Source of the DNA: a virus
Lineage: Duplodnaviria > Caudoviricetes
Strand: one strand, 5' to 3'
Virus record (IMG/VR): IMGVR_UViG_3300032272_000021
Location: 1-48,727 of that record
Length of the DNA stretch: 48,727 nt
Shown here: positions 1 to 48,727 of the stretch, piece by piece
Numbering within the stretch: position 1 is the stretch's first letter
Layout of the letters: each line of letters opens with the position of its first letter
Notes under the pieces: model-generated
The model's database searches: none
What the model saw: the letters and a program-made list of their open reading frames with translations, nothing else
Told to the model about the DNA's origin: nothing
Translations under genes and position numbers: made by a program

Positions 1-128
1 TTGCCTGTATGTCCTCAAAGGTTTGCGCTAGGGGTAAGGTAAGGGCTTGTGTGTAAAGATGTCTTGAGCAGGACGCTGTTAGCTAGGGTGGCAAATCTTG
101 GGGTGCTGTATTGGGTGGCGTATTGGGT
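1..128. repeat. Terminal direct repeat, left copy (true DTR or assembly circularisation overlap)
   Basis: 1-126 identical to 48600-48725; position 127 is G vs A at 48726; 128 matches 48727. Confidence 0.95.
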
Positions 129-142
129 GGCGTACAGGCAAT

Positions 143-174
143 AAAAAACCCCCATCACCGTTTGGCAATGGGGG
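143..174 (-). terminator. Rho-independent terminator after gene 201-659
   Basis: Minus strand CCCCCAUUGCC-AAAC-GGUGAUGGGGG followed by UUUUUU. Confidence 0.85.
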
Positions 175-200
175 CGTGTGTTAAGGTTAATCGGTGGCTG

Positions 201-659
201 TTATTTGGTGGCCTTATCAAAAGCGGCTTGGTCCTTGTGCAATTTAATAAAACCGTGCTCGCTGTTCCATTTCAGGTCGCCGCCTGCGGGGTGCAATTTG
301 CTTTTGCAATCGGCACACGCCTTGTAAAATTCGCCAACGGTCATCCCGTTTTTGTACAGGTTGTATTGCGTGTGCGCCATGCTACCCTTTTTCTTTGGGT
401 TGGCTGTTACCAAAATTTCAATCACCTGCGCATCACGTGCAAGCTTTTTATTTACCTTGGTTGCTTGCTTGGCTGTGGCCTTACCCTTTGTTTCGGTTTT
501 GGTGGTGGCCTTTTTGCCACTGCAACCAGCACCGCCAACACAGTAATGCTTGCCATTGCGTTGCTGTGTACCGTCGGCAGGTACAAAATCACCACACTTG
601 CTACATTGCACTTGGCTTACAACCGCTTCGTTTTTCTTTGCTGTGTTTTGCTTTGCCAT
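201..659 (-). CDS. Basic protein with N-terminal CxxC...HxC Zn-ribbon-like motif and C-terminal NPK-x-x-GS...Y-x-x-GMTV...D-x-x-W domain; paralog of 34372-35109
   Basis: SD GGAGG upstream; own promoter and terminator; clear similarity to the C-terminus of ORF 34372-35109. Confidence 0.85.
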   Translation of the reverse strand: MAKQNTAKKNEAVVSQVQCSKCGDFVPADGTQQRNGKHYCVGGAGCSGKKATTKTETKGKATAKQATKVNKKLARDAQVIEILVTANPKKKGSMAHTQYNLYKNGMTVGEFYKACADCKSKLHPAGGDLKWNSEHGFIKLHKDQAAFDKATK

Positions 660-741
660 AATTTCCTCCAGTTCTAGGGGGGCGTTTTTGCCCGTTAAAT
701 AATTATACGGCTTGTGGATATGTCGCCGTTATGTAGTTAAA

Positions 742-770
742 GATATAGCATTAACAAAAACGATTTGCAA
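742..770 (-). promoter_or_regulatory. Sigma70-like promoter TTGCAA-17-TATATC (extended -10 TG)
   Basis: 17-nt spacer; shares TTGCAAATCG with promoters at 29219 and 48576. Confidence 0.65.
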
Positions 771-857
771 GTGCTTATTTTAACTTTTTTATCAGTTAAG
801 GCAAAAGGGCTTTAAAAACAACAACTTATGCCGCTAAAATAATTTACAATCTGCTAC

Positions 858-1180
858 AAAATACGCAATACCTATTAGGGGCGCTGTTAAAAAATTTTCA
901 AAATTATTTAAGCAATGCAACGTATTTATCGTATTTACGTATTAAGTGTCTGTTTTTACACGATTTACGGTAAATAAGCATTAAAGGTGATCTTATTACT
1001 TGGCAAATACGTTAAATAAGGATACTAGCGTCCTTTGTCTCTCCTTTATAGGCTGTCGGGTAGGGGCTGGGTGATATAACGCAATCTTAAGCGATTAAAA
1101 AAGTCCTTTTTACCTTTGCCGCCGTGTGCGAGTACTAAAATATTTTAAAAATTTTTTAGTGGGACGCTATATAGGTATTT
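858..1180. repeat. AT-rich inverted-repeat element, copy 1
   Basis: Arms 858-910 and 1136-1180 are imperfect inverted repeats; core CGTATTTACGTATTAA (930-945) identical to 27115-27130. Confidence 0.85.
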
Positions 1181-1234
1181 ATTCCCACACAGCCCACTGT
1201 GGTATCAAACACAGCCAATCCCCATTCGCTCATG

Positions 1235-1261
1235 TGCCAATGCCAAATGCCAAATGCCAAA
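1235..1261 (+). repeat. Tandem TGCCAA(A) x4
   Basis: tgccaa tgccaaa tgccaaa tgccaaa. Confidence 0.9.
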
Positions 1262-1491: not shown

Positions 1492-1848
1492 ATGGAACTC
1501 TCCAAATTACCCAACCCACCAATAACGGAGGAAGAAGCGATGAGTACCCCTGCTCGCCGAAGGACGAACATGCGTGATAGTATGGAGAACGTCTACAAGA
1601 CATTGGGTGGCGATGAAGAGATGATAGCATGGGTAAGAGCGTCAGAGTTGAACAGGCGTATCTTCTACCGAGATATTGTACCTAAGTTAGTTCCACGAGA
1701 AGTGAACAACCGCCATACTGACCCAGATGGAGGACCGGTGAAGCATGTGTTTGTATGGGAGGGAGGACCGATGGATCCCGCCAAGGCCACCGAGAAAGCA
1801 TTAGAAATAGATGTCACACCAGAGGCGACAGAGAAAATAGATGAGTGA
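1492..1848 (+). CDS. Putative terminase small subunit (alternative start 1540 with GGAGG SD)
   Basis: Directly upstream of and overlapping terL; helical 'LGG...WV...FY...PKLVP' pattern typical of small terminases. Confidence 0.65.
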   Translation: MELSKLPNPPITEEEAMSTPARRRTNMRDSMENVYKTLGGDEEMIAWVRASELNRRIFYRDIVPKLVPREVNNRHTDPDGGPVKHVFVWEGGPMDPAKATEKALEIDVTPEATEKIDE

Positions 1849-3235
1849 CGACAATAAAGAAATAGTTCGTATACCATATGTCCCCCGAAAGCAACAGCAG
1901 GTTATCCACAACCAGTTGGATGCCCACCGATTCAGTGTAGTGGTAATACACCGTCGTTGGGGAAAGACGGTCATGTTGTTGAACCAGTTGATTAAGCGAG
2001 CATTGAGTGATGACAAGCATCACGGAAGATATGTTTATATAGCGCCATTCTTAAAGCAGGCCAAGACCTTGGCTTGGGATTACCTTAAAAGATTTACAGA
2101 CCCAGTTCCTGGAAGGGAGTACAGCGAAAGTGAAACCAGAGTCAGTTTACCCAACAACTCCCAAATCAGATTGTTTGGGGCGGATAATCCAGACGCACTA
2201 CGGGGAATCTACTGTGATGGAGCCGTACTTGACGAATACGCTCAATGCAACCCTAGTATATTCTCATCGATATTACGGCCTGCCCTTAGTGAGAGAAAAG
2301 GGTGGTGTGTATTCTCTGGTACACCGAACGGACGAAATGATTTCTACGATAAGTTATGTTATGCCCAGTCAAACCCCGATTGGTTTCATGCAGTCTTAAA
2401 GGCAAGCGAGACTGGTATACTGGACGACGAGGAATTGGCTGATGCCCGTCGCACAATGACGGAGGAAGAGTACAACCGTGAGTATGAGTGTAGTTTTGAC
2501 AGTATCATAGGTAAGCGAATATACCCTGAGTTCAACCACGGAATGCACGTAGCGAACGAGGACATACCCCCACAGCACCCCACCACGATTTACAGAGGAT
2601 GGGATAATACTGGTTTGAGTCCAGCTATTATGTTATCGTACATCACGCCGGACGGACAGTGGAGGTTGTTTAAGGAGTTTTGCTTTGACGACTGTGGTAT
2701 TACCGAAGCGACTGAGGCACTTATACTGTGGGGGAACCTTAACCTTCCACATGGCTGTAAATTTGTGGACTACGCAGACCCGATGGGTAAGATGCGAGAT
2801 AGTATTAAAATGTCGGCTCGTGATTATATTATACTGAAGTCCCGTGAGATGGGTCAGGAGATTTGGCCTCAGGATGGTATCCAGTCATGGAAGCCACGCC
2901 GAGAGTCAGTCGCAAACCAGTTAAGGAAGATGCTAAGGAATGGACAACCAGCCTTATTGATTGACCCAGAGGGTTGCCCGTTAACGATCCAAGGCTTTGA
3001 TGGAGGTTACGCATATCGTGAAATCGCAAACATGCCTGGAATGTTCGTTGAGGAAGCAGTCAAGAACCAATTCTCACACATACACGATGCTATACAATAT
3101 ATCGGTACACGTCTCTTCATGCACGATAACAGTTCCATTATCATGCCAAACGGCACAACAATCGACCATTACGATGACTTCGAACACGAACCTTTTGTGG
3201 ATTTAACTGGACAGTCCAAAGTGACTGGCTATTAG
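1841..3235 (+). CDS. terL: Terminase large subunit
   Basis: Walker A HRRWGKT, LRG motif, Walker B AVLDE, coupling motif GTPNG, C-terminal nuclease with HxxDA. Confidence 0.97.
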   Translation: MSDDNKEIVRIPYVPRKQQQVIHNQLDAHRFSVVVIHRRWGKTVMLLNQLIKRALSDDKHHGRYVYIAPFLKQAKTLAWDYLKRFTDPVPGREYSESETRVSLPNNSQIRLFGADNPDALRGIYCDGAVLDEYAQCNPSIFSSILRPALSERKGWCVFSGTPNGRNDFYDKLCYAQSNPDWFHAVLKASETGILDDEELADARRTMTEEEYNREYECSFDSIIGKRIYPEFNHGMHVANEDIPPQHPTTIYRGWDNTGLSPAIMLSYITPDGQWRLFKEFCFDDCGITEATEALILWGNLNLPHGCKFVDYADPMGKMRDSIKMSARDYIILKSREMGQEIWPQDGIQSWKPRRESVANQLRKMLRNGQPALLIDPEGCPLTIQGFDGGYAYREIANMPGMFVEEAVKNQFSHIHDAIQYIGTRLFMHDNSSIIMPNGTTIDHYDDFEHEPFVDLTGQSKVTGY

Positions 3236-5420: not shown

Positions 5421-5469
5421 AGTTAAGGAATACAAACAACATCTCTTAGAGGAGGCAACAAATGATTAA
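5185..5469 (+). CDS. Small head-operon protein overlapping the portal 3' end
   Basis: Strong SD AAGGAGGA; helical protein; stop overlaps the groES start. Confidence 0.75.
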   Translation: MDKPAVVMDATVEELEDWLHHRTTKKVFKFLEECQLTQRHYLDRGACLSLENSDKTAQEYSLTVGKIQGLDLILQIPNEVKEYKQHLLEEATND

Positions 5470-5788
5470 ACCAGCAGGACACAGAGTCCTAGTAATGCCA
5501 GACAAAGTTGACGAGAAGCAGGGGAGTATTTTTATACCAATAGAAGCGCGAGAGCGTATGGGCGAGGCACAGATCTATGGCACAGTAATCTCATTAGGAA
5601 TGACAGCGTTCAAGGCTTTTGATGATGGTGAGCCTTGGTGTAAAGTTGGCGACCGAGTCGCTTTCGCCAAGTATGGTGGTTTTATTATCAAAGACCCTGA
5701 GACAAATGAAATTTACCGACTGTTAAATGATGAGGATGTTTGTGCCATTGTAACAGGAGGCGAAAATGGGAATGCCAAGGTATCTTAG
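5462..5788 (+). CDS. groES: Co-chaperonin GroES-like protein
   Basis: IKPAGHRVLV, mobile loop GSIFIP, GTVISLG, KVGDRVAFAKYGG, LLNDEDVCAIV. Confidence 0.93.
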   Translation: MIKPAGHRVLVMPDKVDEKQGSIFIPIEARERMGEAQIYGTVISLGMTAFKAFDDGEPWCKVGDRVAFAKYGGFIIKDPETNEIYRLLNDEDVCAIVTGGENGNAKVS

Positions 5789-27045: not shown

Positions 27046-27303
27046 ATACCATAACCCTAATAAGGGGCAAATTAAAAAATTTTTGAAAAATATTAAGTAA
27101 ACGGACGTATTTTGCGTATTTACGTATTAAATGGCTGTTTTTAAAAGTAAAACGATTAAATACGTGCGTTATCTGATGTTATTTGTAACACGTATGATAT
27201 TTTTGGCTGGTTGTAATTCACTTAATATTTGCCGACGTGCGTGAACACTAAAATTTTTTGAAAATTTTTTAACAAAACGCCTATATAGGGTATTTGCGTA
27301 TTT
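27043..27303. repeat. AT-rich inverted-repeat element, copy 2
   Basis: Colinear similarity to 858-1180; reverse complement of its right arm closely matches 858-910. Confidence 0.85.
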
Positions 27304-27307
27304 GACA

Positions 27308-27336
27308 TTGTAACTCACGTAAAAACTTGCTATTAT
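27308..27336 (+). promoter_or_regulatory. Sigma70-like promoter TTGTAA-17-TATTAT, followed by AGAACTTACAG (27350-27360)
   Basis: Spacing and downstream shared motif. Confidence 0.7.
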
Positions 27337-27379
27337 AGGTTTTGTACCCAGAACTTACAGACCAACCAAAGGAGAATTT

Positions 27380-27451
27380 ATGAAGTGCATCGTATGCGGA
27401 AGCATTGTGAAGAATAATCGTTGTAGTAATTGCGGCTATACAAGGCAGTGA
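27380..27451 (+). CDS. 23-aa CxxC-x8-CxxC zinc-ribbon microprotein
   Basis: SD AAGGAG; MKCIVCGSIVKNNRCSNCGYTRQ*; stop 1 nt before the helicase ATG. Confidence 0.65.
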   Translation: MKCIVCGSIVKNNRCSNCGYTRQ

Positions 27452-27452
27452 T

Positions 27453-28958: not shown

Positions 28959-29209
28959 AAAAGGGTAAAGGTAGAGGAAGTTGTCGTCTTTGCGAAAAAG
29001 GTATCTACAAAGGCCAAGTAACTGTTCGTGTACGTGATAAGGAATTACTTGCCAAGCATGAAGATTTTATTGTTGTTCATAAAACCTGCGCACGTGAAGG
29101 AGCTAGGCTATTGAATAGAGATGGAACAAAGAGTAATCGTTCTATTGACCAATTTTGGCCTATGCCGAGTTCAAAGAAACTAAGAGCGATACGGTTGGCT
29201 GGTGGTTAA
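28955..29209 (+). CDS. Basic Zn-finger-like protein (CxxC...HxxC)
   Basis: ATGA overlap; GAGG SD. Confidence 0.65.
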   Translation: MKKGKGRGSCRLCEKGIYKGQVTVRVRDKELLAKHEDFIVVHKTCAREGARLLNRDGTKSNRSIDQFWPMPSSKKLRAIRLAGG

Positions 29210-29218
29210 AATAAGACA

Positions 29219-29248
29219 TTGCAAATCGTTTAGTCTAGATGGTACTAT
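29219..29248 (+). promoter_or_regulatory. Promoter TTGCAA-18-TACTAT (extended -10), followed by AGAACTTACAG (29266-29276)
   Basis: Shares TTGCAAATCGTTT with the promoter at 770. Confidence 0.7.
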
Positions 29249-30205: not shown

Positions 30206-30970
30206 ATGGCAGAGAAAAAAGCAGTAGCGAAGAAGGAAGAAAACCTACCTGCGGCAATTGATTTCGGCGCTGATGTTGGTGCTGGATTCGAAGATGCGGA
30301 TAGTCAGAGTTTTGCTATCCCCATACTCAGCGTTTTGCAGAGTGGTAGTCCTCAGTGTAAGCGCAGTCGTGCTGAATACATTGAAGGCGCAAGCGAGGGT
30401 GCATTGTTGAACAGTGTTACTCAGTCAATCTATGATGGCGAAAAGGGTGTTCTGGTTGTGCCTTGTTATTACAACAGGACAATCAACGAGTGGTATCCAC
30501 GTGACAGCAAAGACGGCGAAGGTCTGGTAGCTGTTCACAACACAGCCGATGGTGAAGCATTATTGGCTGACAGTCACGAAGGTCCGAAGGGCGAGCGAAT
30601 GACTGAGAAGGGTACTGTACTCAATGACACTCGTAATCATTATGTTCTGGTGATTGACGAAAAGACTGGTGCGGCACAACCGATGTTTTTCCCGCTCGGC
30701 AGTACCCAGATCAAGAAGTCAAAACGCTGGATGTCGTTGATGAACGGTATCGTGTTCCCCGAAAACCAACAACCAAAACCAATGTTCAGCCAGATCTATC
30801 GTATCACCACAGTTCCTGAGTCAAATGACAAGGGCGACTGGTCTGGTATTAAGATTGAACACGAAACAGAAGTCACTGATGCTGGTATCTACCAAGCGGC
30901 AAAGAACTTCCGTGAAATGGTACGCTCCGGAGTTGCCAAGCCTTCTGACAGTGAGCCTGAACCATTTTAA
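30206..30970 (+). CDS. Putative single-stranded DNA-binding/annealing protein
   Basis: IPILSVLQSGSPQ, TQIKKSKRW, ESNDKGDW, acidic tail ending PF. Confidence 0.65.
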   Translation: MAEKKAVAKKEENLPAAIDFGADVGAGFEDADSQSFAIPILSVLQSGSPQCKRSRAEYIEGASEGALLNSVTQSIYDGEKGVLVVPCYYNRTINEWYPRDSKDGEGLVAVHNTADGEALLADSHEGPKGERMTEKGTVLNDTRNHYVLVIDEKTGAAQPMFFPLGSTQIKKSKRWMSLMNGIVFPENQQPKPMFSQIYRITTVPESNDKGDWSGIKIEHETEVTDAGIYQAAKNFREMVRSGVAKPSDSEPEPF

Positions 30971-30977
30971 CCCTTGC

Positions 30978-31003
30978 AGGGGGAGCTAGTCTCCCCCTTT
31001 TTT
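30978..31003 (+). terminator. Rho-independent terminator
   Basis: AGGGGGAG-CUAGU-CUCCCCCU UUUUU. Confidence 0.85.
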
Positions 31004-31019
31004 GCCGTAGAGGTGTGCT

Positions 31020-32585
31020 ATGACTAAAAGATTCGCTGAATTATTTGGCGGTCTTGATAGGGCGTATGGCGAGTATACTGTTCAGAATAAAAAGGGTGCA
31101 AAATCGGTAGGCAGAGCTCAAACCTTGAAGGAGCAAGTTACCGATGAGCTTTTTGAACAACACTTAGCCGGAAAGAAGGGCATAGGAATCATCCCAATCA
31201 AGGACAACAACAAGTGTACTTGGGGAGCGATAGACATTGATTCTTATGAAAACTTTGACCCTAAAACGATCGCTGATCAAATAGAAGAAAATGGCTGGCC
31301 TTTAGTTACATGCCGAAGCAAGTCAGGTGGAGCGCATGTATTTATTTTCACCAGTCAAGACATACCTGCAAATATTATTCGTAACAAACTTAAAGAGTTT
31401 GCGATTGCGTTCGGCTTTCCAAACGCTGAAATATTTCCCAAACAGAATAAGCTCTACAGTAAAGATGATATTGGTAATTGGATTAATCTTCCTTATTTCG
31501 ACCAAAAAAGAACAACCCGTTACGCCGTAAAAAGTGGCGAAGCGTTGCCCTTAGAGGGATTTATAGAATTGGCAGAGGCCAATAAAGTTTCACTTGCTGA
31601 TCTTTATGAACTTGAACCACCACCGAGCGAGTTTAGTGATGCTCCTCCATGCTTAGAAGTTTTGACTGCAAAGGGTTTCCCTGATGGCAGTCGTAATAAT
31701 GCTTTGTTTGATATGGGTGTGTATGCTCGTATGAAGTTCCCTGAAGATTGGCAACGACATATCCATGATTATAATGAACGATTCATGGGTCCGGGAGCTC
31801 CAAAAGAAGTACACAACATTATCAAGCAATTGGACAAGAAGAAGTACACGTATAAATGCCAAGAAGACCCCATCTGTGGTGTGTGTAATAAAGTTGTTTG
31901 TGCGAGCCGTCAGTACGGCATACAGTCCTCGAGCAGTCCTTATCGTACAAGCCAAGCACAGAAAACCATGCGCCCATGTATACTAGATGAGGTCGAAGGT
32001 CCTGTTGAATGCTATTTACCAGCAGAGACATCTGACGATGAACCATATTGGGTATTCAAATTTCGTGGAAGACCAATGGATGTGAGCATCGATATGGTAC
32101 AGAGCCAGAGTAAGTTTTTGCGTGAGTACCTAAAGAAGTTTCGTAAAGTCATTTTAGCAATTGACGAGACACGTTGGTCGGAAGCAATTAACCTGTTACT
32201 AGAGGAAGCCATTGACCATGAGCTTGCTCCGGACGCTGGTCCAGAAGGACAATTCTTTATTCACTTGGAAACATTTTTAACAGGTAAGGTGCAGGCTCGT
32301 GAGAAGGACGAACTGTTATTAGGTAAGCCTTGGCGAGACGTTGATGCAACCGAGGGATTCGGAGATAGAATATATTTTCGATCACCCGACTTGATGAAGT
32401 ACCTTGACCAACAGCGTTTTAAACAGTTTAAAGAGAGGCAATTATATGGTATACTTAGGCGTAAGGGTGCAAGGCATCACCGTTTTATGATTAAAGGAAA
32501 GTGTGTATCGTGTTGGAGCGTTACACCATTTGACGAACAGACCGAAGGGTTTGACGTCCCAGAAATGGAGAAAGGAGATTTCTAA
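31020..32585 (+). CDS. AEP-superfamily primase with PriCT-like region
   Basis: WGAIDID, SKSGGAH, EIFPKQ, GNWINLPY, PPCL, GSRNNALF. Confidence 0.85.
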   Translation: MTKRFAELFGGLDRAYGEYTVQNKKGAKSVGRAQTLKEQVTDELFEQHLAGKKGIGIIPIKDNNKCTWGAIDIDSYENFDPKTIADQIEENGWPLVTCRSKSGGAHVFIFTSQDIPANIIRNKLKEFAIAFGFPNAEIFPKQNKLYSKDDIGNWINLPYFDQKRTTRYAVKSGEALPLEGFIELAEANKVSLADLYELEPPPSEFSDAPPCLEVLTAKGFPDGSRNNALFDMGVYARMKFPEDWQRHIHDYNERFMGPGAPKEVHNIIKQLDKKKYTYKCQEDPICGVCNKVVCASRQYGIQSSSSPYRTSQAQKTMRPCILDEVEGPVECYLPAETSDDEPYWVFKFRGRPMDVSIDMVQSQSKFLREYLKKFRKVILAIDETRWSEAINLLLEEAIDHELAPDAGPEGQFFIHLETFLTGKVQAREKDELLLGKPWRDVDATEGFGDRIYFRSPDLMKYLDQQRFKQFKERQLYGILRRKGARHHRFMIKGKCVSCWSVTPFDEQTEGFDVPEMEKGDF

Positions 32586-34371: not shown

Positions 34372-35109
34372 ATGGTTTATAAGGATGCTACAAATATTCA
34401 TGTCATTTTTGTCCGTGCCACCCCAAGTTTCGTCTTTATTATTAAGATGCACAGGGGCAAAAGGCGCATAGTAAGAATTTCACACGCAGAGTTCGAAAGA
34501 GATTATAAGCTCACCAAAAGAGTAGCCGCATGTGTGGCTGAAAACTGGCTGAAAGGCCAAATCAAGATGACCTCAGTGGTCAGAAAGGAGTTGGAAATGC
34601 GTATCGCAATTTTCCGAAAGAAGATCGTAGCAAAAATCGAGAAGGGGCAGAGAGTCCCTACTGACATGCCGGAGGGTTCAGTCATTTATACACGTGACGA
34701 CCTTGAAGGCAAGTCGATGAAACAACTGGTTGATATCTTCAACGCCACAGTCAGTAAAGACGAGCGGGTTAAAGTGCTCGAAGGTGTTGAGGGGGATATC
34801 AATCTTGCTCAGGAGCAGGTATGGAATGCCCTGTGTGAAGCTGACGTTTACGTCAAGCCTGAGAAGCCTGCCCGTGACCCCGATGCTCCACGAGCAGACC
34901 GTATTCCAAATGATGCAACCATTACTGTGGTTGTTGAAGCAAACCCGAAGCGTGAAGGTTCCAAAGGCGCAGAGCGGTTTGACCTGTACAAAACCGGAAT
35001 GACTGTCCAAGCATTTAAAGATGCTGGTGGCACGATGGCTGATGTACGTTGGGATCGTGAGCATGGTTACATCGAAGTAGATGTACCTGATGTGGAGGAG
35101 GCGGCATAA
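34372..35109 (+). CDS. Protein with C-terminal NPKxxGS/GMTV domain (paralog of 201-659); possible internal start at 34597
   Basis: ANPKREGSKGAERFDLYKTGMTV...DVRWDREHGYI. Confidence 0.85.
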   Translation: MVYKDATNIHVIFVRATPSFVFIIKMHRGKRRIVRISHAEFERDYKLTKRVAACVAENWLKGQIKMTSVVRKELEMRIAIFRKKIVAKIEKGQRVPTDMPEGSVIYTRDDLEGKSMKQLVDIFNATVSKDERVKVLEGVEGDINLAQEQVWNALCEADVYVKPEKPARDPDAPRADRIPNDATITVVVEANPKREGSKGAERFDLYKTGMTVQAFKDAGGTMADVRWDREHGYIEVDVPDVEEAA

Positions 35110-35960
35110 TGATTCTTTATCCCGAGCTTCTGCATTGGGTTAAAGAACGCCGCAAAATCTACCAAAGGAAAGAGGGGGGAGAAATCCCCCCTTGGACTGA
35201 CGACAAGATTTTGCAACAGTTTAAATTCACCAATGTAGAAAGAGAACTAGACAGAACGACCATATGGGTAGCTAAGAACTGGAGAAAGCCAAATAAAGAT
35301 TGTACTGTACTCTGGTTCAATATGGTTATTGCTTGCCTGCTGAATTGGCCTGATACCCTTGATGAGATAGGGTACACAAAGAAGTTTATTCCAGAAGAGT
35401 TTAAGGCCAAACTCAAGGCACGTCGTGATCGTGGCGAAAAGGTCTTCGCCGCCGCTTACATTGTCAGCACCAACGGTAGAGCAATGGATAAAATTGACTA
35501 CGTTGTTGATATAATCCTTACACCGATGTGGGAAGCGAGAGAAGCATTCGAAGTAGATAAAGGAAAAGATACCAAATTATTTCTTAGAGATTTATTCGGA
35601 CTCCTTACTTCTTTTAACGGTATGGGGAGTTTCTTAGCGAGCCAAGTTGTTGCTTATATGAAATATGAACAACCTTGGAGCTCCGCAATAGATTGGGAGT
35701 ATTTTGCAACATCAGGTCCGGGAAGTCGCCGAGGAATGAATAGGCTACACGACAGACCAGTTAAGAAATCACAGAAGGAAGAAGTATGGTTGGCAGAATT
35801 ACATGAACTTCAATTTAAACTTTCAGAAGATGGGATTGACATTCATGCACAAGATGTGCAAAACTGTTTATGTGAATTTGATAAATACATGAGAACAAAA
35901 AGTGGCGAGGGTCGCCCGAAAGTGAGGTATGATGGTAATCCTAATTCCAACACTCGGTAG
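35109..35960 (+). CDS. aGPT-Pplase1 / 5-hmdU DNA kinase helical-domain protein
   Basis: ER..IY..K......PWTDDKILQQFKFTNVERELDRTT, AAYIV, GPGSRRG, QNCLCEFDKY. Confidence 0.85.
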   Translation: MILYPELLHWVKERRKIYQRKEGGEIPPWTDDKILQQFKFTNVERELDRTTIWVAKNWRKPNKDCTVLWFNMVIACLLNWPDTLDEIGYTKKFIPEEFKAKLKARRDRGEKVFAAAYIVSTNGRAMDKIDYVVDIILTPMWEAREAFEVDKGKDTKLFLRDLFGLLTSFNGMGSFLASQVVAYMKYEQPWSSAIDWEYFATSGPGSRRGMNRLHDRPVKKSQKEEVWLAELHELQFKLSEDGIDIHAQDVQNCLCEFDKYMRTKSGEGRPKVRYDGNPNSNTR

Positions 35961-36714
35961 GGTAACAGAACAACCAACTTGGGACTTTATCCCAAATGAA
36001 TGGCGTGATCGTACGTACCTTGTTTGTCCCCCAGAAGAAGAGGATGAACACCACCGCCGTGACCGTCAGGTTCTGGTTTGTCCTATTAATGGTCAAGAAG
36101 GAAAAACGATAGGCGACGTACGACAATGGATGATGGAGCATTCACCTGATCCACATATACTTATGTTGGACGATGATTTACGGTTCAGCACATGGAGTGA
36201 ACTTGGTAAGGGTCGTATGCGTCCTGCTGATAAAGTAGACATGAACAAGTTTTTAAAGATGGCTGAGCGTGGTTTAAAAAGTCACGCACACTTGGCTATC
36301 CAGCCAAGAGCAGGAGCCAATCACGTGTGGCCTGCTGTGAGTAGGGAAGTTGGTCGTGCCTGTACAGCATGGGGAGTTGATCGTGATGTATTGGCTAAAG
36401 AGGGTATAAAGTTCAATAGACTTGGTGTGATGGAAGATTTTGATGTTGTTCTTGGTCTGTTGTCAAAGGGATACCCGAACTTTATTATATGCAATTACCA
36501 GTGGGATCAAAAAGGTTGTAACACTTCTGGGGGTTGTAGCACTTACAGAACACCCGAAGTCCAAAAAGCAAGTGCCGAAAAACTTGCCGAACTGTGGCCG
36601 AATTTTGTCAAGGTGGTACAGAAAGAAACCAAAGGTCGTTGGAAGGGGATGGACACCAGATACGACGTAAGAGTGCAATGGAGGAAAGCCTATGAAAGTT
36701 TTAACAGGACGTAA
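35929..36714 (+). CDS. GT-A fold glycosyltransferase, TAGT/GREB1/JGT-like
   Basis: IPTLGR, MLDDD (DxD), MEDFDVVL, N..GGCS.YRT, WP.FV. Confidence 0.75.
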   Translation: MMVILIPTLGRVTEQPTWDFIPNEWRDRTYLVCPPEEEDEHHRRDRQVLVCPINGQEGKTIGDVRQWMMEHSPDPHILMLDDDLRFSTWSELGKGRMRPADKVDMNKFLKMAERGLKSHAHLAIQPRAGANHVWPAVSREVGRACTAWGVDRDVLAKEGIKFNRLGVMEDFDVVLGLLSKGYPNFIICNYQWDQKGCNTSGGCSTYRTPEVQKASAEKLAELWPNFVKVVQKETKGRWKGMDTRYDVRVQWRKAYESFNRT

Positions 36715-37660
36715 TGTAAATTATCTATTACCACAAGGTATGAACAGCCTATTACAGATGGGCGGATACATATCCCCTCGTGGTCTGTCTACCTTGGAGT
36801 ATCCGGGTCAGGTTGTTAGTATTTATGAAAGACCTACCGAACGTGTGTTGTTTGACCCTGTTCGTGATGCTAACCCATTCTTCCATTTTATGGAAGGTCT
36901 GTGGATTATAGGTGGTCGTCAGGATGTTGAATTTGTTAGTGAGTTCAACAGTCGTATAAAAGATTATAGTGACGACGGAGTAAAATTTCATGGAGCTTAT
37001 GGTCACCGACTAAGAAACAAGTTTGACCAAGTTGGTAAAGCGATTGAGATGCTAAGAAAAGACCCAGACACTCGCCGTGTTGTACTGCAAATATGGGATG
37101 CAAAAAGAGATCTTGGCGCAGATGTAAAAGATGTGCCTTGCAACGATTTGATTATACTTAAAGTAAGAGAATGTGCTTTGCACATGACGGTGTGTTGTAG
37201 GAGCAACGATGCGATCTGGGGGTGCTATGGTGCGAATGTTGTACACTTCAGCATGTTGCAAGAATACATGGCAAGTATGATCGGTGTTAATGTTGGCGAG
37301 TATGTCCAAATAAGTGATAGCTTCCATGTTTACAACGATAACCCTTATTGGAAAAAAGTAAAAGAGAATATAGGGTTAGTCGGTGAACTCGAAGAAGACC
37401 CCTATTCGTCAAGAATTGTTTCTCCTTGGCCTATGGTACAAGACCCAGAAACATGGGACAGGGAATTGTATTGTTTCTTGAATCAACATACTTGCAACTA
37501 CAAAAATTCATTTTTCACTCAAGTCGCTATTCCGATACACTTAGCTTGGATGTCTCACAAACATGACAATTCAGGTCATTTATTTGTTTCCGACATAGCG
37601 GCTAGTGATTGGCGAATGGCCTGTCATGAATGGTTAGAAAGAAGAGGTGACCATGTATAA
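36692..37660 (+). CDS. Thymidylate synthase-fold dUMP hydroxymethylase-like enzyme
   Basis: ANPFF...E.LW, GAYG.R, TRR.V..IW, catalytic PCN, RSND.IWG...N (Asn implies dUMP specificity), SFHVY. Confidence 0.88.
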   Translation: MKVLTGRNVNYLLPQGMNSLLQMGGYISPRGLSTLEYPGQVVSIYERPTERVLFDPVRDANPFFHFMEGLWIIGGRQDVEFVSEFNSRIKDYSDDGVKFHGAYGHRLRNKFDQVGKAIEMLRKDPDTRRVVLQIWDAKRDLGADVKDVPCNDLIILKVRECALHMTVCCRSNDAIWGCYGANVVHFSMLQEYMASMIGVNVGEYVQISDSFHVYNDNPYWKKVKENIGLVGELEEDPYSSRIVSPWPMVQDPETWDRELYCFLNQHTCNYKNSFFTQVAIPIHLAWMSHKHDNSGHLFVSDIAASDWRMACHEWLERRGDHV

Positions 37661-38174
37661 AGAAAGCGTCTACAACCTTATACAGCGCAATGGTCGTGTA
37701 AAACGATTTCATACAAGCACTACGCTTGGCTCAGAGACAATCGCAGAACACAGTTGGGGTGTTGCTATGCTGTGTATTGCTCTCACCGATAATAGATGCA
37801 GTGTAAGGCTTCTTTCAAAAGCACTATTTCACGATTTACCAGAACAGGAGACAGGTGATCTACCTGCGCCTGTAAAGTGGGAGCATCCAATTCTTCGTAC
37901 TGCGCTTGGTGCTATTGAAGATGTCTTTGAGTTAAAGCACGAGACATATACAGTGCTTAACGAAGAAGAACAATTTATATTTAAAGTAGCCGACATGCTT
38001 CATTTACTTACCACAGTACACCACGAGTACATGCTGGGGAATATGACCATGAACGAATTGTGGGAGAACGGTAACGATTACCTTGAGGACTTGGACAATT
38101 CCACAGAAGAGGGTATCCCACAGTTAGCGAAAGACATTATTAAACAGATGTATGAAGAGCGAGGTGCGGTATGA
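37654..38174 (+). CDS. HD-domain deoxynucleotidase (YfbR-like)
   Basis: VKRFH...ETIAEHSW, LFHDLPE..TGDLPAPVK, KVAD. Confidence 0.88.
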
Positions 38175-44091: not shown

Positions 44092-44229
44092 TTAGAACTT
44101 ACTGGACAGGTTCTTGTAAAGGTGGTATGGAAAGCTGAGAATTGCGACGACCACAAACAATACAAGATAACATAATCCCAAAAGCACTATTCCCCACCCC
44201 AGTACATCACCTTCATGGTGATTAGTCAT
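44092..44229 (-). CDS. 45-aa single-TM peptide coupled to the AAA ATPase gene
   Basis: ATGACTAA overlap; MTNHHEGDVLGWGIVLLGLCYLVLFVVVAILSFPYHLYKNLSSKF*. Confidence 0.5.
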   Translation of the reverse strand: MTNHHEGDVLGWGIVLLGLCYLVLFVVVAILSFPYHLYKNLSSKF

Positions 44230-45754
44230 CGTAATGAGACCTGTCGTCGCAGTGTTCGTTTACTGCCATATCTGCTTGGTCTGCACTACGCTCGTCAATC
44301 ATACCCTTGACATAGTTTTCCATGGAGACGACCTTTTCCTTGCGTACCATAGTCATCATCTCATATTGCGGGCGCAGTTCTGTAAGTGCCGCAACTATGT
44401 CATCGTTGGTAATCTTGACTGTCTTCTTGTTACTACCCTCACGGGCAATTGCATACAGTGTCGCTTTGGACACAGCCTCCTTGATAAAGGCTGGGACATA
44501 ACCCTTCGCCGCTTCGTACAGGCTGTCGGGGTCAAGTTCACCCTTAATCATCGAAGCGCCTTTGTCCGTTACAGCAGTCGCCTCAATAAACTTAATGACA
44601 CCCTGCTTGTCCAGCTCACCCAACCGAATCACAGCATCAAGCCGTCCAGGTCTCAGCATGGCAGGGTTGATCTTCTCGATATGGTTGGTAGTAAGGATAG
44701 TCATAACTTGGCTGTCCTTGGACAAGATGCCGTCGATGCTGTTCAGGATACCGTTGACATCATCGTCACGGGTTTCAGTGGCCTTGGCGTCAATGTCCTC
44801 AAAGAACACACAGGCAGGCTGATACTTCTGTGCCATACCAATCGCCTTCTCGATGTTGTCGTTACCACGGACAAGGATAAACGTCCATCCGTTGGCGACG
44901 CACTTACGTGCGGACATCAATGCGGTCAGCGTTTTGCCGGTTCCGTACGGACCGTGGAGCAGGATACCACGTTTGATCGGTATGTTCGCCGCAATCGCTT
45001 TTTGCGTTTGCTCAATCACGGTGAACACGTTGGCATTGAGCTGGAGCTCTTGGTCGGCACTGTAAACAACCTGATCAGGGTTGAAGCTGTCGATGTTCAA
45101 GAACTCGTAGCCGCTGTCAATAGCCTTGCCAAGAAAAATACTGTTCGTCCGCAGAAACTTCTTGGCGGCTTCTTCAATATCCTTGAGCAATGGCGTATAC
45201 TTCTTCTTGCAACTGTATACGACACGAACACCAACATCTCCCGGATCATAACTGTGGGGGTCGGTTACGTGGATGTCCATGTGTATCGGCAATCCAGGAA
45301 CCTTCGTGCTACCAACAGGTATCTTGATAGAGTTTTCGTGGTCAATAGGCACGATAAAGCTTTTTCCAGGATTTGGTCCGAAGAAGCCCATCGTGGTACG
45401 GCTTGTGAGGTTGCCGTAGATGTCGCTGACAGCGTGGTGAAAAGCATAGCAGGCATCGTAAGGGTGAGCTTCCAGCTCCATGAGCGTTTGCTCGTCCTCC
45501 TCCATTTCTTGAAGATAAGAGGTAATGGCGTCGGCCGCATCTTCCAAGTCCATGTGTTCTGGCACACGAATCATCTTGCCGCCACGATCGATGCCGTGAC
45601 CTGTCTTGTATCTCTTGGCAAGAGCGTTCTCCAGAATTTGTTGAGCAAGCTGGAGTTCGGACACATCGTCCTTCTGTAGGCTTGCCGCCATGTCCTTCAG
45701 TTCTTTACGGCTGGGGATTGGTGCTTGTGCTTTTTCTTCTGTATACTCGTCCAT
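44222..45754 (-). CDS. AAA+ ATPase (classic clade, FtsH/BCS1-like core)
   Basis: RGILLHGPYGTGKT, VFFEDID, TTNH, AMLRPGRLD. Confidence 0.93.
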   Translation of the reverse strand: MDEYTEEKAQAPIPSRKELKDMAASLQKDDVSELQLAQQILENALAKRYKTGHGIDRGGKMIRVPEHMDLEDAADAITSYLQEMEEDEQTLMELEAHPYDACYAFHHAVSDIYGNLTSRTTMGFFGPNPGKSFIVPIDHENSIKIPVGSTKVPGLPIHMDIHVTDPHSYDPGDVGVRVVYSCKKKYTPLLKDIEEAAKKFLRTNSIFLGKAIDSGYEFLNIDSFNPDQVVYSADQELQLNANVFTVIEQTQKAIAANIPIKRGILLHGPYGTGKTLTALMSARKCVANGWTFILVRGNDNIEKAIGMAQKYQPACVFFEDIDAKATETRDDDVNGILNSIDGILSKDSQVMTILTTNHIEKINPAMLRPGRLDAVIRLGELDKQGVIKFIEATAVTDKGASMIKGELDPDSLYEAAKGYVPAFIKEAVSKATLYAIAREGSNKKTVKITNDDIVAALTELRPQYEMMTMVRKEKVVSMENYVKGMIDERSADQADMAVNEHCDDRSHYDD

Positions 45755-45783
45755 TGTATTTCTCCTTAAGGATTGTGGGTTAA

Positions 45784-45878
45784 TCTGCCCTTTTGCCTAT
45801 GGTTCCGTCTTGCACTCTGAGGTATGGGACACTCCTTTCTCTTATAAGGTTAAAGGTTGCCACAGACCAAAGGGCAGA
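45784..45878 (-). ncRNA. Candidate structured leader RNA upstream of the AAA ATPase
   Basis: Minus strand: 10-bp plus 8-bp stem (with G-U pairs) enclosing a CCUUU/AAAGG hairpin. Confidence 0.4.
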
Positions 45879-45883
45879 AAGGA

Positions 45884-46216
45884 TTAATCCATTCGTGTTG
45901 CCCAGACCTTTCCGTCTTCAATAGCAACAACAAATGCGTATTCGTAAAAGAATACTCGGTTCCCTTTTGCTCTGAGTTCGAGCAGTGGTTTAAGTGGTGG
46001 ATCGTCAGGGTGGTGCATCGTACCGTCTTCGTCAACGGTAATACGCTCCCCCATCCCAGTGTCCACATAGTAGGGGTAGTTTGCAATGAGCGCTTCCTTG
46101 AAAGAATTGTTGTACCTCGGCGCTTGCACCGCCCACAAAGGCAGAATACCACACATATTCGCAAGCTGTTCTTCCGTAAACGCAGGGTTTTTAATAATCT
46201 CTAGTTCTTCTGACAT
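45884..46216 (-). CDS. Hypothetical protein
   Basis: SD GGAGG; D.PL.P...Y..A.VAI....ATRMD. Confidence 0.8.
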   Translation of the reverse strand: MSEELEIIKNPAFTEEQLANMCGILPLWAVQAPRYNNSFKEALIANYPYYVDTGMGERITVDEDGTMHHPDDPPLKPLLELRAKGNRVFFYEYAFVVAIEDGKVWATRMD

Positions 46217-46225
46217 AGTGTCCTC

Positions 46226-46507
46226 CTATTCGTCGTCGTCATCACCTTTGAGTATTCTTGCTGCGAGCGCAACCTGAAGTTCTCTAGGCAATTTTCCGGC
46301 ATGTTCGTACAGCAGGTGAACAAGGTACGCAGGAGCTCCATGAACACAGCCAAAGTTCGTAACATTGTCACGCCCGTCGTGTGAATGCAAGCCAAGGAGC
46401 ATTATCATTGGCTCCTCCACGTCGTTTTCCAGGTCTTCCCTGAACTCGTTGAGTGTCTGAATAGTACCAACAATCATTTCATCAATTTTCTTGTTTTCTT
46501 CTTTCAT
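46226..46507 (-). CDS. Hypothetical protein
   Basis: SD AGGAGG. Confidence 0.75.
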   Translation of the reverse strand: MKEENKKIDEMIVGTIQTLNEFREDLENDVEEPMIMLLGLHSHDGRDNVTNFGCVHGAPAYLVHLLYEHAGKLPRELQVALAARILKGDDDDE

Positions 46508-46516
46508 ATCAGCCTC

Positions 46517-46633
46517 CTAAAAGCCAACGTAGTGTGGGAGAGTAGTCTCCAGAAATATATAACCAATGCCTATATATAAGGCTACCAGCAGAGCCCATTG
46601 AAGAACAACAATTATTATTTCTCTTTTGTTCAT
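46517..46633 (-). CDS. 38-aa single-TM peptide (absent from the ORF track)
   Basis: SD AAGGAG; MNKRENNNCVLQWALLVALYIGIGYIFLETTLPHYVGF*. Confidence 0.55.
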   Translation of the reverse strand: MNKREIIIVVLQWALLVALYIGIGYIFLETTLPHYVGF

Positions 46634-46644
46634 TGATTTTCTCC

Positions 46645-47022
46645 TTAATGGATGGACTCGTCGTCCGGTCTTTTAACAATAAGTTCTTCCATCGCTTCTT
46701 TCAGTCCAAGAGACAACTCGTCTGTTGGGTCTTCTACCAACTTGTTCAGCGCTTCCTTAACGATAATCTGACCGTGCGCAGGCAGGTTCATAACAATACC
46801 GACAACCGCATTCAGCGTATTGCCAAGAGTAGCGTGGCTTTCACAGTACAGACCACTGGAATCGTCGGCGGCAATGTGCTTGGCGATCAGAATGTCGTAT
46901 TGAACCTCGTCGACATCGTTCATCATGACAAGTCGCTTCAGCTTTTTCAGTTGTCCTATCGCATCATCAATCTGGGCTACGACATGCCCTTTCGTTTCTC
47001 CACTCGGGGTTGGTTTACTCAT
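46645..47022 (-). CDS. Hypothetical protein
   Basis: SD AAGGAG; overlap with the upstream gene. Confidence 0.75.
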   Translation of the reverse strand: MSKPTPSGETKGHVVAQIDDAIGQLKKLKRLVMMNDVDEVQYDILIAKHIAADDSSGLYCESHATLGNTLNAVVGIVMNLPAHGQIIVKEALNKLVEDPTDELSLGLKEAMEELIVKRPDDESIH

Positions 47023-47476
47023 AGCTATTCTCCTTTAATGTTTGTAAGTGTTCCACAAGAACTTTGTGTGTAATACGCTGTGGAACTCGTGCAAGTGCTG
47101 TTTTTAATAGTGCCTCCATCATCTCAGGGGTGGCGACGGCACTGGTCTTCACATCTGTTTTGGTTTTGGGTTCATCACGGTCGGGAGTAATCAACACGGC
47201 AATGTGCGGAATGGCTTTTGAATCTTTGCTTTCGTTGTACGCCGACCGCATTTCGTTGAATGACCTGATGTAGTATGTGAACATCTCTGTGTAGTCATCA
47301 ATTGAGCCGACGACTTCTTTTTGCCGCTGTGGGGGTCTCTTTATAAATGTAAGCGTTGCTACCCCACACCACAGCCAAAGAGTAGCGCACAGAGCGTTTA
47401 TAGGCCATGTAGTGTTCACTACACCCAAACCAGCGGCCATTATCGCCGCACCTAACAAAAAGGGATTAATCTTCAT
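47015..47476 (-). CDS. Membrane-anchored hypothetical protein (2 N-terminal TM)
   Basis: SD GGAGG; hydrophobic N-terminus. Confidence 0.75.
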   Translation of the reverse strand: MKINPFLLGAAIMAAGLGVVNTTWPINALCATLWLWCGVATLTFIKRPPQRQKEVVGSIDDYTEMFTYYIRSFNEMRSAYNESKDSKAIPHIAVLITPDRDEPKTKTDVKTSAVATPEMMEALLKTALARVPQRITHKVLVEHLQTLKENSYE

Positions 47477-47705
47477 CGTATTCCTCCGTTAGTTGTTGTA
47501 CTGCTTCACAGAATGACAGCCCACGCTCAAGGCACTGTACAGCCTTGATTGTCCAATGCCACAGGTCGTCAGCGTAGAATCCAGGATCTTCGTCAGCCAC
47601 AAGACATTCAAACATGTCAACTGCATGACATTCGCTGACATCGTCGTACTCGTACGCCAATTGACAAGCTGTCTCCATTAAGGATTCAATTTGATCTTTG
47701 GTCAT
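47466..47705 (-). CDS. Small acidic protein
   Basis: SD GGAGG before ATG 47705; Asp/Glu-rich. Confidence 0.7.
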   Translation of the reverse strand: MTKDQIESLMETACQLAYEYDDVSECHAVDMFECLVADEDPGFYADDLWHWTIKAVQCLERGLSFCEAVQQLTEEYDED

Positions 47706-47901
47706 GGCTTCCTCCATTATTATAAAATGCAGAGTAGAATGCGGTTGCAGTGGACTCGTCGATGTCATGCTCAACTTCTAAGTAACAGCAGAAGTTATGA
47801 ATGGTGAGCAATCCAACAAGGTTCGCAAGCTGGACGGTTCGTTTCGCGCCCAAACAGCGATCAACGTTCTGAATAGCTTCTCGTTGCGCATTGTCCATCA
47901 T
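47686..47901 (-). CDS. Hypothetical protein
   Basis: SD GGAGG. Confidence 0.65.
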   Translation of the reverse strand: MMDNAQREAIQNVDRCLGAKRTVQLANLVGLLTIHNFCCYLEVEHDIDESTATAFYSAFYNNGGSHDQRSN

Positions 47902-47903
47902 AG

Positions 47904-48068
47904 CTAGTCCTCCAGTTGTTTGGGATAATAGTTAATCCCCTGATGGTTATCGCACATACGCAGAGCATCTTCCTCCCGTAGACACAGGTCGTTGGCTTCC
48001 AAGAGAATATCTGTCCACAGTTCCCGTTCTGCGCCTCTGTAGGTGCGTCCGTTATCAACTATCTTCAT
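47904..48068 (-). CDS. Hypothetical protein (MKIVDNGRTY...)
   Basis: SD GGAGGAG before ATG 48068. Confidence 0.6.
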   Translation of the reverse strand: MKIVDNGRTYRGAERELWTDILLEANDLCLREEDALRMCDNHQGINYYPKQLED

Positions 48069-48294
48069 TGGTAGTCTCCTCCGGAATAGGTTGTCCAGCG
48101 TAGACAATCTTACCGCAGTCTTTGCACGGCAGTTCGTAGTCGGTGGTGGGGTCGTGGAGTGCGTCGGTTTCAGTAATAAATACGATGGATGGGTTTTCCA
48201 GACATGTGTCGCAGAGTATGACATCATAAATAATGTCAAGGCCACCTGCTTTGCGAAGTTGTTCCACTTTAAACAGTTGAATACTTTGTTCCAT
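48055..48294 (-). CDS. Zn-ribbon-like acidic protein
   Basis: SD AAGGAG; CxxC...CxxC. Confidence 0.7.
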   Translation of the reverse strand: MEQSIQLFKVEQLRKAGGLDIIYDVILCDTCLENPSIVFITETDALHDPTTDYELPCKDCGKIVYAGQPIPEETTNEDS

Positions 48295-48317
48295 TAGCTT
48301 TCTCCTTTTCTCCAGTT

Positions 48318-48503
48318 CTAGTTGCGCTTCATGCGCAGGTTGGTCACTCCAAATATAGAATACAGCACACAGGCGTCATTCATGCTTGGGAGAGTATAGT
48401 CTCCTTCCATGCTCAGCACCCTGTAGCTCTTCACTTTACCGTTAGAATATGTCAATCGTGGATGGGTCACAAAAAGGTAGCCGTTGCGGGAAAATATATT
48501 CAT
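48318..48503 (-). CDS. First gene of the minus-strand arm, hypothetical
   Basis: SD GGAGG preceded by CCCCTAGAACT. Confidence 0.7.
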   Translation of the reverse strand: MNIFSRNGYLFVTHPRLTYSNGKVKSYRVLSMEGDYTLPSMNDACVLYSIFGVTNLRMKRN

Positions 48504-48547
48504 GAGAATCCTCCAGTTCTAGGGGTTTTGCTTGTGTGTATATATTA

Positions 48548-48599: not shown

Positions 48600-48727
48600 T
48601 TGCCTGTATGTCCTCAAAGGTTTGCGCTAGGGGTAAGGTAAGGGCTTGTGTGTAAAGATGTCTTGAGCAGGACGCTGTTAGCTAGGGTGGCAAATCTTGG
48701 GGTGCTGTATTGGGTGGCGTATTGGAT
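48600..48727. repeat. Terminal direct repeat, right copy
   Basis: Matches 1-128 with one mismatch. Confidence 0.95.

Follow-up and report, generated by a model that had tools for sequence, protein, structure and literature searches.

The window, by which we mean the whole 48,727-nucleotide stretch of DNA analyzed here (IMG/VR record IMGVR_UViG_3300032272_000021, Caudoviricetes), contains near its left end a short leftward gene unit whose coding strand is devoid of the dinucleotide TC, referred to below as the island. The features relevant to this unit are as follows.

74..716, minus strand: TC-free run on the coding (non-template) strand, equivalent to a GA-free run on the plus strand
148..175, minus strand: hairpin resembling an intrinsic terminator, with a T tract, at the end of the unit (12 pairs; -21.7 kcal/mol, z -2.2)
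201..659, minus strand: island gene, encoding a basic protein of 152 amino acids with an N-terminal Cys cluster, a Lys/Ala/Thr linker and a C-terminal NPK domain (residues 78-141)
664..674, minus strand: ribosome-binding motif, repeated at 48509-48519 before the next leftward gene
702..707, minus strand: TATAAT hexamer, a candidate -10 box found by eye, with no matching -35 box and absent from the promoter-scan calls
717..1260, minus strand: AT-rich upstream control region, with minus-strand TC at one third of expectation
1492..3235, plus strand: a gene likely, from its location, to encode the small terminase, and the large terminase gene, both diverging from the island gene
27046..27452, plus strand: second AT-rich control region, before the rightward replication genes, with 5 plus-strand TC versus 16.5 expected
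34372..35109, plus strand: NPK-domain paralogue at the head of the modification cluster, with normal TC and GA use
35109..35960, plus strand: HMUDK_hel (PF18723; E 3.6e-44), an uncharacterised protein, annotated in other phages as aGPT-Pplase clade 1
35929..36714, plus strand: TAGT-family glycosyltransferase (PF20691; E 1.6e-13)
36692..37660, plus strand: thymidylate-synthase (TS) homologue (PF00303; E 4.6e-19), a predicted dUMP hydroxymethylase
37647..38174, plus strand: HD-family 5'-deoxynucleotidase
48600..48725, no strand: 126-nt end repeat of window bases 1-126, the contig being circular

Because the contig is circular, the island runs into a leftward gene block (44222-48503); the island gene is the first of this block, which continues at 48503, and is transcribed in the direction leading away from the terminases. 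TC use is normal in the other leftward genes that were tested. The block ends with an AAA ATPase (44222-45754, minus strand), opposite which lies a long open frame (44234-45679). A promoter scan gave a count not above chance (4 versus 2.9) and listed another site at 804-777. The plus-strand ORF at 111-677 has no family match, and we regard it as a by-product because TGA is impossible without GA. The stretch before the small terminase (1261-1491) looks TC-rich, an excess that is not significant (19 versus 15.9), and a GroES-like co-chaperonin gene (5462-5788) is located between the portal and head genes.

On the plus strand, GA occurs at position 72 and then not until 717, where base composition predicts 29.4 occurrences in 73-716 (Poisson P 1.7e-13); the preliminary description, made by eye, had reported the same gap and an expectation of a few tens. 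Across 200 genomes shuffled in 700-nt blocks the longest GA gap was 204, the second-longest in the window itself is 200, and the gaps of all other dinucleotides in the window are at most 332. All eight flanking contexts (NTC and TCN) are absent from the gap, with 5 to 11 expected of each, which identifies the missing word as the dinucleotide itself.

Within the island gene, the coding strand has no TC versus about 13.5-13.8 expected from synonymous resampling under genome-wide codon usage, and the minimum among 20,000 draws is 4; none of the 43 other genes of the window given the same test comes near zero. Codon choice achieves the gap, as had been proposed: Ser is always AGY (6/6), Phe TTT (4/4), and Ile ATT (3/3), while GTC and CTC are absent. 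The resampling and shuffled-genome controls rule out chance and amino-acid composition as its cause. CT and TA are also low on this strand, even given the absence of TC. The template strand is thinned rather than emptied, with 19 TC (coding-strand GA) versus 27.8 expected (P 0.0013). Of these, 14 are forced by the protein (12 by Asp or Glu, one by a Trp-Asn junction, and one by a Met-Thr junction), in keeping with the earlier claim that the residual sites are mostly forced, and two more avoid long A runs. That claim put the strand difference down to the protein; in relatives, which strand is purged varies in its own right (below). Two GGA steps in the ribosome-binding motif account for a further two template-strand TC.

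Depletion continues upstream of the gap, as first noted, but to about 1260 rather than 960 (10 GA versus 30.9 expected in 717-1260). Two elements, of 39 and 19 nt, are common to the second control region and positions 885-958, and in both control regions TC is scarce on the strand that is coding in the unit downstream. Thus the rest of the genome is not wholly unaffected, since this region is TC-poor as well; the statement that TC and GA are used freely elsewhere holds for the paralogue at 34372 (TC 33 versus 27 expected) and not for 27046-27452. A 27-nt element in the upstream region of the island (749-775) also occurs, inverted, in the replication block (29205-29231).

The paralogue heading the modification cluster is 39% identical to the island protein over 64 amino acids. 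The TS homologue is 44% identical to M6 gp58, with an active-site motif common to both that includes an Asn we take to be dUMP-specific. A tblastn search of the window with M6 gp54, a P-loop 5-hmdU DNA kinase, gave no match (E 1e-4), although a distant kinase could escape it, and Pfam and PHROG scans of the 63 ORFs of the window contain no such kinase. The amino acid:DNA transferase aGPT-Pplase2 (M6 gp51) likewise has no tblastn match in the window, while it does in P26218 and MW202557. Searches with six deazaguanine-pathway proteins encoded by another viral record (G048), together with library scans, found no match in the window, although a stand-alone divergent DpdA could escape them; Que and FolE homologues are also absent from the thymine-modifying genomes examined here. 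Judged by this gene set, the phage is predicted to make hydroxymethyluracil DNA, and the simplest product of its cluster would be glycosylated hydroxymethyluracil.

We searched 47 viral records, 43 found via the NPK domain and four via terminase, for HMUDK_hel, which is present in 24 of them, including 10 of the 11 near-complete ones, though 186 and 321 bases are missing from the ends of G022 and G027, respectively. Other genomes were scanned in 400-nt windows for depletion of all 16 dinucleotides, scored as log10 P. Four of these ten contigs contain a clear TC/GA island (G001, log10 P -28.4; G027, -20.2; G026, -7.0; G022, -5.8), and all four encode HMUDK_hel, a glycosyltransferase, and TS; a fifth, G044, has a diffuse island (-5.8), and the remaining five (G006, G008, G010, G021, and G034) have none. 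Islands also occur in the fragments L046 (-9.3) and L030 (-8.2), whose limited length could not reveal the cluster. Wherever log10 P is under -5.8 the word is GA/TC, with the exception of one CC-poor window in G027. The islands adjoin terminase genes in G026, G022, and L046 and, from visual inspection of the translations, also in G001 and L030, and their borders are sharp in G001 and G027. Clusters dense in GATC or TC border the islands of G026 (L084:60-150), G022 (L078:17100-17200), and G001 (L042:7600-7800). In L030, a stretch of about 230 nt that immediately precedes an NPK gene and adjoins the terminase (L030:9258-9494) lacks GA, TC, TG, and CA on both strands, a gap that would match a TG-or-TC context.

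All clear islands come either from genomes that encode base-modification enzymes or from fragments whose short length leaves this undecided. Where the cluster is lacking, G005, G030, and G047 show no island, and G014, which encodes only TS, reaches a log10 P of -5.5. G048 has a GA/TC-poor zone before the terminase (-6.4) and encodes QueC, D, E, F, and FolE (L134:1434-6923; L135:10450-11460), in addition to an unnamed candidate transglycosylase of 317 amino acids; this zone would fit a general rule that the depleted word follows the phage's own modification. Phage CAjan reportedly carries a 7-deazaguanine modification at a short GA motif, which would give the same GA/TC word; unlike such phages, the window encodes no Que or FolE homologue. 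No island was detected in eight TS-encoding phages from GenBank (M6, phiJL001, P26218, MW202557, MW202897, SH-Ab 15599, LuckyBarnes, and RHph_TM26; LuckyBarnes and RHph_TM26 were scanned over 50 kb each). Among these, SH-Ab 15599, with its measured TG context, has no TG/CA island, while the weakest CA/TG window lies directly before the small terminase in M6 (L003:3241-3640, -3.9) and in RHph_TM26 (L144:11231-11630, -3.7), which is only a hint. A metagenome scan with a polymerase alignment retrieved nothing but the record of the window itself and a single distant fragment.

The islands divide into three strand classes: coding strand only, template strand only, and both. The first includes G026 (TC 0 versus 6.9 and 0 versus 6.4; GA 20 versus 19.8 and 10 versus 9.8) and G022 (TC 1 versus 9.2; GA 16 versus 13.1). 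Their island genes do not encode NPK proteins and run in opposite directions relative to the terminase; in these related phages the purged strand goes with the gene and not with the terminase. Both strands are purged in G001 and G027, whose island NPK copies contain only 2/92 and 2/173 acidic residues, whereas the other NPK copies in these genomes are normal, as expected if the constraint acts on DNA. The template strand alone is purged in L046 (GA 3, the forced minimum; TC 21 versus 14.5) and in G004 (GA 11, with a minimum of 10; TC 22 versus 20.9), although other steps are also low in the G004 gene. In both, TC-free DNA switches to GA-poor DNA at a point upstream of the gene; TC-free stretches of short, origin-like direct repeats (L046:5370-5597; G004 near 30950-31200) end at this point. 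The window belongs to the coding-strand class, with partial purging of the template. In a tree of HMUDK_hel the three coding-strand genomes occupy one branch (support 97/99) that also contains the island-less G010; with three labelled rows, 47/500 shuffles gave a value as low, which makes this a weak test, and the glycosyltransferase and TS trees do not group this class.

The closest relative of the window is G005 (terminase 73%, helicase 71%, and polymerase 65% identical; contiguous from primase to terminase), in which the site of the thymine-modification cluster is taken, in a cassette swap, by a phosphoesterase, a DUF4406 protein, a P-loop protein, and a C5 methylase (L099:3024-6517). G005 has neither an NPK domain nor a GA-free run longer than 140 nt, while sharing short control elements with the window. 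At the matching place it shows a half-strength GA dip in a window chosen after looking (21 versus 39.2; intergenic part 19 versus 29), which may be a relic or a sign of a second cause. As a further two scans of viral sequences yielded no close relative other than G005, this close control is a single genome, 39% complete. The comparison of related phages with and without the modification operon is in partial agreement with a link between the two, given clear islands in four of the ten HMUDK_hel contigs and none in G005, but five of those contigs have no island.

The island protein belongs to no family in Pfam or PHROG; its N-terminal Cys cluster matches PP0621 weakly (E 2e-4, below the cut-off). 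Its structure model (pLDDT 92.5) matches that of phiJL001 gp18, and Foldseek comparison of the model with the PDB gave no match at E 0.001. A VIA comparison gave a best Z of 6.6, with many winged-helix chains at Z 4-4.8 and none at Z 8, a loose likeness. An ESM Atlas search returned unnamed clusters only, and a single-protein locus search with the island gene found nothing. The broad NPK alignment proved too variable to serve for a locus scan. The NPK domain is common in thymine-modifying phages, and its profile retrieves 3,528 representatives. It is combined with an ADP-ribosyltransferase domain in 10 of the 25 long or multi-copy matches scanned, large proteins with mostly two NPK copies (P0008, P0009, P0012, P0013, P0016, P0020, P0032, P0042, P0045, and P0132), and also occurs within the PHD-finger proteins P0107 and P0150. 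Acid-poor NPK proteins in the public collection (P0090, P0122, and P0112; 2-5% Asp plus Glu) are candidates for further island genes.

The fixed identity of the missing word, its linkage to modification genes, the extension of the depletion into non-coding sequence, and the acidic residues sacrificed to it argue for a DNA-level constraint arising from the phage's own chemistry, and because the purged strand is tied to gene direction, transcription is likely the process served. We therefore propose, with moderate confidence, that the phage decorates its own thymines in the context TC and that the unit is kept clean for host RNA polymerase. The decorated base is likely the T of 5'-TC-3', the added group probably a sugar, and the leftward gene, its upstream region, and its terminator are likely kept undecorated for early expression by the host enzyme, this unit presumably being read first. 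As a guess, the NPK protein may bind DNA in the manner of a winged helix and be required before the remaining, decorated part of the genome comes into use.

The first of the two ideas in the preliminary description, a thymine modification at TC, gains comparative support from the recurrence of the same word in the independent genomes G001, G027, G026, and G022 and in fragments L046 and L030, as well as from G005, which lacks both cluster and island. The accessible parts of earlier reports place thymine hypermodification at TG or TC in M6, ViI, and PhiW-14, from restriction data (PMC6449724), and mainly at TG in SH-Ab 15599 (PMC13458397), but this preference may not apply here because no kinase or amino-acid transferase homologue was found in the window. 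Also against the proposed reading, half of the near-complete HMUDK_hel contigs are island-free, as are phiJL001 and LuckyBarnes, which encode the same three genes, the other leftward genes of the window use TC freely, and the template-only purging in L046 and G004 needs another account. In vitro, uracils with bulky substituents at the 5 position block the RNA polymerase of bacteria (PMC4838386, PMC11550810, in the parts accessible). As this block is at initiation and not elongation (PMC4838386), it leaves the purging of a whole coding sequence unexplained; the effect of hypermodification on promoters is described as remaining to be studied (PMC6449724).

A whole purged gene, and not a promoter alone, is what would be expected if the undecorated unit instead escaped modification-dependent host nucleases until a counter-defence protein is made. 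This possibility shares the comparative evidence for a decoration at TC, and the location next to the terminases is reminiscent of a genome end; restriction of T5-like phages, according to the accessible part of PMC10644984, depends only on sites in first-transferred DNA. A nuclease acting on duplex DNA should exert selection on both strands, yet template TC is untouched in G026 and G022, and the island gene has no defence-related match in Pfam, PHROG, or NCBIfam. We consider this benefit unlikely.

The correspondence of the empty strand to the mRNA in the window, G026, and G022 could also reflect a rule at the RNA level, whereby the transcript must be UC-free to survive a sequence-specific ribonuclease. 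The zero run, which begins 9 nt before the TATAAT hexamer and ends about 75 nt beyond the terminator, agrees with this, but depletion extends 550 nt upstream in the window, and in G026 it reaches 124 nt beyond the -35 box on the upstream side (4.0 expected). Moreover, the exact reverse complement is purged as well in G001 and G027, and it alone is purged in L046 and G004, making an RNA-level rule quite improbable and second among the alternatives.

The second idea of the preliminary description, that first-injected DNA would be purged of restriction sites or DarT-type motifs, is not supported for the motifs it names: of the approximately 28 missing TC, TNTC would account for 5.0, GATC and GANTC for 1.5 each, and GAATTC for 0, and all eight flanking contexts are empty. 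These counts also weigh against a broader form, in which host defence acts on ordinary TC in DNA through restriction sites, DarT-type ADP-ribosylation, or a deaminase on the displaced strand, as do the 118 GATC in the genome and the confinement of clear islands to genomes encoding base-modification enzymes and to fragments of insufficient length. Transcription exposes the non-template strand, DarT is described as acting on single-stranded DNA, and G005 keeps its weak echo without the cluster; even so, we rank this explanation third and doubt it strongly. Finally, a mutational scar, in which TC was lost through local strand-biased deamination or repair with no benefit, would be in line with the all-TTT Phe and all-ATT Ile codons and with the strand bias typical of such processes, but is very unlikely given that TT is not in excess (26 versus 22.4), that T is lower than in the TC-free null (77 versus 88.8), that Ser codons restricted to AGY are unreachable by C-to-T changes, and that the island borders in G001 and G027 are sharp.

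If TC is indeed the phage's own decoration context, such islands would allow the context and strand of the modification to be read directly from the genome sequence of uncultured phages, and, with both named, direct tests become possible on a single 460-nt gene. The finding bears on the handling of hypermodified phage DNA by host RNA polymerase and on the product of clusters combining TS and a glycosyltransferase, while the large unannotated NPK family is a candidate reader or helper of the modification. A speculative extension, which we think improbable, is that thymine-decorating phages write an on/off map onto their DNA: next to the packaging genes, a starter cassette kept undecorated in a strand-specific way would encode a dedicated copy of a modification-linked DNA-binding domain, the choice of clean strand (coding, template, or both) being set by the HMUDK_hel lineage.

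Compared with known systems, the window resembles M6, ViI, PhiW-14, and SH-Ab 15599 in having a dUMP-hydroxymethylase-type TS, HMUDK_hel, and HD genes by a family A polymerase (PMC6449724, PMC8989533, and PMC13458397, in their accessible parts). Unlike the M6/ViI type, it contains a glycosyltransferase instead of P-loop kinase or amino-acid transferase homologues, and M6 and SH-Ab 15599 have no strong island; the accessible parts of the same three papers describe no unmodified zone for M6/ViI-type hypermodification, and that of PMC7544227 contains no mention of depletion. The same gene set as in the window occurs in the base-J-like clusters of TS and a GT-A glycosyltransferase (phiJL001 gp18-26; LuckyBarnes) described in the accessible part of bioRxiv 10.1101/2023.12.21.572611, and the phiJL001 cluster is also headed by an NPK-domain gene, but these two cultured phages lack the island. 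In the literature searched (mostly non-subscription, main texts), we found no description of islands free of a phage's own modification context.

As in the first-step-transfer DNA of T5-like phages, a motif matters in only one positional part of the genome; there it consists of host restriction sites on the duplex, whereas in the window one strand lacks a dinucleotide, a loss associated with modification genes of the phage itself (PMC10644984, accessible part, for the T5-like phages). Positional motif avoidance in T5-like phages and context-specific thymine modification are already known, while the coding-strand-only form, the three strand classes, and a close relative without either cluster or island are new from the window.
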